In this document: in pieces, positions 61,190-61,937 of the stretch
How positions within the stretch are numbered: the stretch's first letter is position 1
Layout of the letters: each line of letters starts with the position of its first letter
NCBI RefSeq assembly: GCF_058153355.1
Contig: NZ_CM177019.1
DNA length: 64,000 nt
Strand: one strand, 5' to 3'
Notes under the pieces: model-generated
Told to the model about the DNA's origin: nothing
What the model saw: the letters and a program-made list of their open reading frames with translations, nothing else
Databases searched by the model: none
Made by a program: the position numbers and the translations under genes

Positions 61190-61937
61190 GATGGCAGCCT
61201 CCGCGATGAATTTGATTAACTCACCACCGGAGGTAGCAATCTCATGGGGGGTGAGACGTACAGGGTTGCTACAACCGGTCATCACGGAACCCGGCCAGTC
61301 TTGCGACTGCCCCGCACGCCCCACCATAATTTGAATGTGGCTGTGCATTACGCATAAAAAAACCGCCTGAGCGCGGTTATGCGCCGTGAATGACTTCGGG
61401 GTAGCAATCCCAGCACCCGTTTTATGAGGTGCAGATGCACTATAATTCCACCCGTTCTGGTTTTCAATAGCTACATTCAACATTTTCTCTTACCTTTCAT
61501 CACCGAAGTGAACTTTGTCGATGCGGTGCCTGGTGCCTCCAGGTGACGTTAACCAGTTAACAATTAACGCCGGAATAAGGGATTTTCCTTACTGTTTTAA
61601 CTGTTCCGCGTGCGCATAGCCGCATTCACCGCATCACAAAATTCACTTTAAAAAGAGCGGCAGAGCAAAACTGATGCCGCCAAAAGTTTCATCGCCAACA
61701 ACTCAATCTGGAGATGTTGTGGCGTGGTTGTCACTTAAGCGTATGGTCAACCTGACAACCCGGTGTCCTCAACGGGGAAGGAATAACTCCGCCATACTTA
61801 CCGCCGCGTCATTTCGCGTTGTGTGCCTGCTTTTAACCACGTCAGGCGAGGTGGTTCCTGTTATTCCTCAACAACAAGAAATTTGTATAATCTGAATACC
61901 CCAACAATAAGAAGAGTGAGCAAGTGATGTATTAGCG

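Follow-up and report, generated by a model that had tools for sequence, protein, structure and literature searches.

The locus and its setting

The window analysed here is a stretch of 64,000 nucleotides of contig NZ_CM177019.1 (RefSeq assembly GCF_058153355.1). It comes from E. coli, to judge by an edd-zwf backbone with 99.5% identity to complete genomes, and it contains a lambdoid prophage that adjoins ryeA/ryeB. The SraC/RyeA-SdsR/RyeB locus (53163-53308) abuts the prophage beside an integrase-sized ORF (53436-54512), and a RalA antitoxin RNA is present within the prophage (54870-55048, 204 bits), as in Rac-type prophages. The gene for a CI/DicA-like HTH repressor (63227-63733) stands in an operon context like that of dicBF, the further members recognised by Pfam and PHROG being a DUF1391 YdfA homologue and YdfB-like and YdfC-like ORFs. 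The recE-like gene downstream encodes 642 aa, and dicB is absent from the prophage. The interval 61484-61937 lies between a Rha-family gene on the minus strand and a 148-aa gene on the plus strand.

Coding potential of the interval

The original prediction held that there is no convincing ORF between the Rha-like gene and the 148-aa gene, and for 61484-61937 this is confirmed by the ORF list, by protein families and by shuffled sequences. The longest listed ORF in the interval is ATG-initiated and 73 aa long (61674-61895, plus strand), none of the six ORFs of at least 25 aa has a match in Pfam or NCBIfam, and no stop-free stretch exceeds 91 codons, a length that 19% of the shuffles of the interval reach. 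A length of 454 bp without an ORF is statistically not unusual alone; the gap counts as real because of its homology, not its length. Among 32 sequences of the homologous loci, 12 have a 1-nt indel (CCCC/CCCCC) in the conserved block, and owing to this indel, together with an 85-bp deletion in the window, no frame is kept on either strand. The interval is non-coding. A conserved protein gene was looked for by homology in Pfam, NCBIfam and the reading frames of the homologues, and none was found.

The left boundary of the gap, which had been placed at 61483, turned out to be wrong. The 282-aa ORF that sets it (60635-61483, minus strand) crosses a C4 RNA gene and an IsrK gene together with the promoter and terminator of the latter. 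Since the most likely start of Rha is ATG 61192, the stretch without a conventional gene extends over approximately 745 bp (61193-61937). It had also been guessed that the gap could hold promoters, a terminator or a small RNA. Each of the three was found, either by homology or by prediction.

Homology to the dicF region

On its minus strand, the interval shares homology with the ydfC-dicF-dicB intergenic region of Qin, a prophage of E. coli K-12. It aligns with Qin and five other prophages, and phage Tritos and three E. coli prophages carry the corresponding region; invariant blocks flank DicF on both sides. The location is that of a dicBF-type locus according to both the alignments and the K-12 annotation: ydfC stands on one side, the dicF-dicB spacer on the other, and the flanks are homologous. 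It has previously been reported that DicF is excised from the polycistronic dicBF transcript and has no internal promoter, and that RNase III makes the 5' end of a 190-nt species from which RNase E then produces the 53-nt RNA (bioRxiv 10.1101/2023.04.14.536235).

The conserved upstream block (61726-61818, minus strand) forms the 5' portion of the 190-nt precursor in the alignment to K-12 Qin, where 91 of its 93 nt are identical, and it is nearly invariant among 32 distinct prophage sequences. The stability of its fold is unremarkable (z = -0.6), and there is almost no covariation. Judged by alignment, this block is the 137 nt that precede DicF in the 190-nt species. Next to it the alignment places a spacer common to the moron-bearing relatives (61819-61885, minus strand), and at the junction between the two (61818/61819) 85 bp have been deleted in the window, between CGCGAAA direct repeats (alignment columns 264-348). 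The 5' end of the K-12 190-nt species maps to about position 1746 of locus L004, which falls within these 85 bp; the deletion thus takes out the K-12 segment with the RNase III site that creates the DicF precursor.

The upstream block and a DicF-slot hairpin also exist without ydfABC or the spacer. In phage cdtI (L132, 1660-2165) a pL-like promoter (TTGACA-17-CATAAT) precedes the block and a hairpin terminator in the DicF slot by about 330 nt, and this unit directly follows cI and its terminator with no ORF between.

The DicF-derived hairpin

A hairpin derived from DicF, GGCGGCAUCAGUUUUGCUCUGCCGCU followed by U5, is located at 61650-61681 on the minus strand and was recognised by Rfam, by alignment and by its fold. 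The Rfam DicF model (RF00039) scores only 22.3 bits on the window (E = 0.062), which is below its gathering score of 48; the DicF copies of relatives score 61-77 bits, and the window's own allele in loci L007 and L008 scores 27.9 bits. This copy differs from the canonical RNA in two ways. First, 11 nt of the DicF loop, ACUCCGUGACU, are cleanly deleted in the alignments; second, the segment at 61682-61725 (minus strand), which according to the alignments and the allele list lies where the DicF 5' arm and the RNase E site would be, is unrelated in sequence to the canonical UUUCUGGUGACG. It is known from genetic work that the 3'/loop region of DicF pairs with the ftsZ ribosome-binding site and that its 5' end serves xylR (PMC5069750). 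The ftsZ-pairing region, which contains ACUCCG in canonical DicF, lacks the 11 nt, and the xylR-pairing region has an unrelated segment in its place.

The terminator part of DicF is retained. The GGCGG...CCGCC hairpin and the U run are both present, with one pair at the base of the stem weakened to G-U, and the fold is -11.2 kcal/mol in the window versus -15.1 in K-12. Considering that the stem base and the U run survive, the function of the hairpin as a terminator has plausibly been kept; a simple terminator scan did not list it because the stem is interrupted. Of the elements guessed for the gap, the terminator is thus matched by this hairpin, which resembles an intrinsic terminator. So is the small RNA, with the correction that the hairpin, as a degenerate and sub-threshold copy of DicF, is not an intact one.

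Cofolding with the ftsZ leader yields a gain of -4.0 kcal/mol for the window's RNA versus -7.5 for that of K-12. The shortened RNA has residual complementarity to the ftsZ ribosome-binding site (CGGAGAGAAACU with AGUUUUGCUCUG), which is not above that of shuffles. These pairing tests were low in power, considering that K-12 DicF itself is equalled by 31 of 500 shuffles. Because shuffles scored as well, RNAduplex and the complementarity alignment were set aside, and only the cofold difference and the loss of the loop were used. The promoter scan found no minus-strand promoter inside the interval at 9 or more of 12 matches, so that everything on this strand depends on read-through across the moron gene in antisense.

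The deleted allele is rare. It was detected in two IMG/VR contigs and, among 5,426 complete genomes of E. coli, in strain VL40 alone, and the deletion junction has no match among 100,044 species-representative genomes. The same allele is nevertheless present in four independent sequences (the window, L007, L008 and VL40) with one substitution, and this recurrence could reflect maintenance.

The structured spacer

The dicF-dicB spacer (61506-61649, minus strand) is conserved and structured, as seen both in its fold and with RNAalifold. A long-range helix of about 23 bp joins 61627-61649 to 61506-61528 and encloses hairpins at 61608-61623, 61576-61591 (variable), 61545-61571 and 61529-61543 (CCUGG-AGGCA-CCAGG). 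The 217 nt at 61484-61700, which contain the spacer, fold with -78 kcal/mol (z = -4.97), and none of 200 shuffles is as stable. Among 33 distinct sequences RNAalifold predicts 39 pairs, four of them with compensatory changes and almost none broken. RNase III is reported to make a 72-nt form of DicF that is extended at the 3' end (PMC5069750). The point 19 nt past the end of the 53-nt RNA falls in the 5' arm of the long helix, and therefore this helix is a probable RNase III substrate.

An RNase III-sensitive leader hairpin lies upstream of lambda N. The lambda leader is alike in general design, with an extended helix at the start of an early-left operon whose end directly precedes the Shine-Dalgarno sequence of the following gene; in contrast to the lambda arrangement, the helix in the window precedes a promoter and not a ribosome-binding site. 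The spacer ends at a module junction (61484-61505, minus strand, from alignments), where the dicF region gives way to the IsrK-C4-Rha cassette. This is the position at which K-12 has the Shine-Dalgarno sequence of dicB and its start codon, and the junction recurs in L001-L003, L017, L026, L078, L081, L097 and L125.

A part of the spacer gives a sub-threshold match to STnc100 (RF02076; 34.1 bits versus a gathering score of 47, model positions 30-148 of 206), which is reproducible in all dicF-dicB spacers tested. What the spacer has in common with STnc100/PasD is a two-hairpin sub-structure that includes UCACCnGGAGGCACCnGGCAC; this element is located at 61529-61549 (minus strand) with the second hairpin before it, and it is also present in 85 IMG/VR loci. 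Its stem covaries between CCUGG/CCAGG in the spacer and CCGGG/CCCGG in the late-region STnc100/PasD type, with the AGGCA loop fixed. Membership of the spacer in STnc100 was rejected, since the match is partial and sub-threshold and the true copies, unlike the spacer, are late-region RNAs near Q with their own terminator.

The spacer is also encountered apart from dicF. In the Stx phage 75/02 of Shigella (L133, 2001-2170) it stands alone immediately upstream of the septation-inhibitor gene kil, and in P7 (L131, 2501-2616) a part of it is located 38 nt upstream of terB in the tRNA-ban operon. Going by these placements, the structured spacer appears to behave as a portable 5' leader.

The IsrK-C4-Rha cassette and the start of Rha

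The small RNA IsrK is located at 61356-61432 on the minus strand (Rfam RF01394, 60.2 bits versus a gathering score of 50). It has its own promoter, TTGAAA-17-TATAGT (61467-61439, 10 of 12 matches in the promoter scan), with a start at about 61432, and an intrinsic terminator at 61378-61361 was found by the terminator scan; the promoter falls just beyond the edge of the interval. Downstream of IsrK there is a C4-type antisense RNA (61244-61331, minus strand; RF01695, 72.8 bits versus 45), whose loop GUUCCGUGAUGA complements UCAUCGCGGAGG, the ribosome-binding site of Rha directly in front of ATG 61192. Only 1 of 500 shuffled leaders forms as good a duplex, which agrees with membership in the C4 family.

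Considering Pfam, TIGR02681 and the relatives, the gene for the Rha-family regulator or antirepressor is corrected to 185 aa (60635-61192, minus strand). Pfam Phage_pRha matches residues 119-203 of the 282-aa ORF and TIGR02681 begins at residue 108. In L007, L008 and VL40, Rha has 184 aa, and these loci become homologous to the window again about 10 nt before ATG 61192. Among ten homologues the variable sites upstream of 61192 are spread evenly over the codon positions (7/8/9 and 11/11/9), whereas within Rha there is an excess at the third position (12/8/24). On the other hand, the 282-aa frame is open in all ten homologues, and Pfam Ash matches its residues 14-107 with 61 bits. Taken together, Rha most likely starts at ATG 61192.

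RefSeq models of the relatives are annotated as 283-284-aa 'Rha family' proteins whose first approximately 97 codons cross the IsrK promoter, IsrK, its terminator and C4. The loci concerned are 60635-61483 (minus strand) in the window, L001 1982-2836, L002 1473-2327 and L130 4358-4924, and the 184-aa Rha of VL40 is flagged by RefSeq as 'missing N-terminus'. Both Pfam Phage_ASH (PF10554) and phrog_995 match the N-terminal part of the over-extended proteins. Because the substitutions in that part have no codon periodicity, these two families may be translations of RNA genes, and the Pfam Ash family probably represents the translation of IsrK and C4.

The cassette, which adjoins the interval and lies outside 61484-61937, resembles isrK-orf45-anrP of Gifsy-1 in Salmonella, with the logic of P1 immI (PMC4825925). 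As in Gifsy-1 isrK and in c4-icd-ant of P1/P7 immI, IsrK has its own promoter and a leaky terminator and is combined with a C4-type RNA and an antirepressor-like Rha. Read by eye, the frame of ATG 61327, the counterpart of orf45 located near nt 106 of the transcript that reads through from IsrK, continues into Rha without meeting a stop, in contrast to the Salmonella locus as described. Translation from this codon would then yield an N-terminally extended Rha and not a separate coupled peptide.

In the closest relatives, which carry the same deleted DicF allele, the cassette is different (L007 6657-7539 and L130 3488-4924), as a Phd/YefM-RelE/ParE pair and an sRNA-Xcc1 RNA replace IsrK-C4. The sRNA-Xcc1 (RF02221, 67 bits) occupies the place of C4. 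Its loop CUUCUUAACUG complements CAGUUAAGGAGG, the ribosome-binding site of Rha in the same copy (2 of 300 shuffles). Between cassettes, the antisense loop co-varies with the flank of the ribosome-binding site.

The 148-aa gene and the plus-strand promoter

The plus strand at the right-hand end of the interval (61886-61937) is predicted, from the sequence and from relatives, to contain a -10 element (TATAAT, 61886-61891) with a weak -35 and the 5' UTR of the 148-aa gene. The element agrees with the guess that the gap holds promoters, as it is a consensus -10 upstream of the gene; TGTATAAT at 61884-61891 is conserved in KFu019, N51 and L007, which have the same gene in the same place. It was not flagged by a simple promoter scan because of the poor -35.

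The 148-aa gene (61938-62384, plus strand; GC 0.39) belongs to phrog_1244, a family of unknown function, and its product has no match in Pfam, NCBIfam or PADLOC. Read by eye, the protein has a coiled-coil-like N-terminal half and a zinc-ribbon-like CxxC...CxxC motif in the C-terminal part. In KFu019, N51, L007 and VL40 the gene occupies the same insertion site, convergent to ydfC, as is typical of a moron. A hairpin located 3' of ydfC (62410-62435, minus strand), GCCGGACACGGGUGAGUAUCCGGC, is conserved with K-12; the tail of the window's copy is T-poor, which gives it a weak resemblance to a terminator.

Interpretation and alternatives

It is likely that the interval is a degenerate non-coding dicF segment in a dicBF-type early-left operon of an E. 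coli lambdoid prophage; the lack of a gene in the gap would follow from its nature as a damaged copy of the prophage dicF small-RNA region. The segment agrees with the K-12 Qin dicF locus in its position downstream of the ydfA/B/C homologues, in the base of the terminator stem and the U run, and in the structured spacer, which in K-12 stands before dicB. It differs from Qin in that it lacks 11 nt of the ftsZ-pairing loop and the 85 bp with the RNase III precursor site, and in that its 5' arm is unrelated; moreover, the divergent 148-aa gene is inserted upstream, and the IsrK-C4-Rha cassette is in the place of dicB.

As to the mechanism, when the repressor encoded at 63227-63733 is relieved, minus-strand transcription would pass the ydfA/B/C homologues and continue antisense through the 148-aa gene. 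The transcript would then enter the precursor block and mostly stop at the DicF-derived hairpin and its U5, which would act as an intrinsic terminator or attenuator, while RNA that reads through would fold into the spacer structure, in which RNase III would cut the 23-bp helix. The IsrK-C4-Rha antirepressor cassette would be driven by its own promoter, and the right-hand end of the interval would serve on the plus strand as the promoter and leader of the divergent moron. The sequences themselves show the homology, the lesions, the conserved base pairing and the lack of a coding signal, whereas transcription, termination and RNase III cleavage in the window's strain are inferred. On account of the lost 11 nt, the replaced 5' arm and the lost RNase III precursor site, canonical DicF is probably not produced here.

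Since the region is recognisable as the dicF segment of a dicBF operon, the result carries little weight for biology at large; the element is of a known kind in a rare degenerate variant, ordinary but for the rare deletion in its small RNA. It is mainly annotation that benefits. A gene-free gap is explained, the adjacent RefSeq Rha models of 282-284 aa are identified as translations across the IsrK and C4 RNA genes, and a rare DicF allele without the ftsZ-pairing loop is documented. Such an allele means that a genome with "a dicF region" need not carry a DicF that inhibits division.

Alternatively, the interval could be functionless debris of a decaying prophage with a conservation that is due to recent common descent, as would agree with the three lesions relative to K-12, with the moron between ydfC and the dicF region, with the absence of dicB and with the 642-aa size of the recE-like gene. 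However, both flanking blocks are nearly invariant in prophages and phages that are mosaic or unrelated in the adjoining sequence, they are found apart from each other in the cdtI phage, in Stx phages and in P7, and the pairing of the spacer is kept by one-sided and compensatory changes, so that we consider this reading somewhat unlikely.

The opposite possibility is that the shortened DicF is a working trans-acting small RNA with a new set of targets, in which an Hfq-type hairpin and U tail are kept and the 5' seed is new. The retained hairpin and U5 and the remaining ftsZ complementarity are in line with this, as are the near identity of the allele in the window, L007, L008 and E. coli VL40 and the presence of at least seven hairpin/seed alleles between invariant flanks, which is what would be expected for small RNAs with interchangeable seeds. 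However, no promoter of its own was found for this RNA, the canonical RNase E region has given way to other sequence, the window has lost the RNase III precursor site, none of the target predictions was better than shuffles, and the allele is very rare in both complete E. coli genomes and species representatives. A working RNA with new targets is therefore unlikely.

The upstream block might alternatively be a put-like cis-acting antiterminator RNA that allows read-through of the DicF terminator. It is always located just 5' of a strong hairpin terminator, in cdtI it follows a pL-like promoter by about 330 nt with no ORF between, and no N homologue was recognised among ydfA/B/C. Against HK022 putL and putR, however, 80-257 of 1,000 shuffles aligned as well as the block, whereas for putL against putR the figure was 0 of 1,000; there is no motif match to HK022, the fold is neither unusually stable nor supported by covariation, and the block is already explained by published work as a part of the 190-nt DicF precursor (bioRxiv 10.1101/2023.04.14.536235). 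As the alignment with HK022 put is within shuffles, this very improbable function was rejected on sequence. Finally, a small protein, either the ATG-started 73-aa ORF or a DicB-like N-terminal fragment of the kind that RefSeq calls an 'incomplete DicB' pseudogene on the equivalent spacer of THO-003 and KFu019, is barely credible and a protein-coding gene was rejected, considering the lack of family matches, ORF lengths as in shuffles, the frame-breaking indels, a DicB-extension frame that in the window has a stop and no start by eye and no listed ORF, and the accepted start of K-12 DicB downstream of the spacer.

Diversity of the DicF slot

Turning from these alternatives to the preferred degenerate dicF segment, its DicF slot belongs to a position with many forms. 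Between the invariant upstream block and the spacer at least seven unrelated alleles of hairpin and 5' arm are found. We put forward, as a tentative proposal that is itself unlikely, that the slot is a hypervariable small-RNA cassette, in which the window's allele, instead of being a dead DicF, would be one of a so far unrecognised group of prophage small RNAs whose target specificity has been swapped, and the invariant flanks would serve as processing signals and recombination arms. The diversity of these alleles may merit a dedicated survey. The alleles were seen in L017, L026, L074, L075, L078, L081, L083, L095, L112 and L132 (2100-2165), and the non-canonical ones score 0-39 bits on the Rfam DicF model, whose gathering score is 48.
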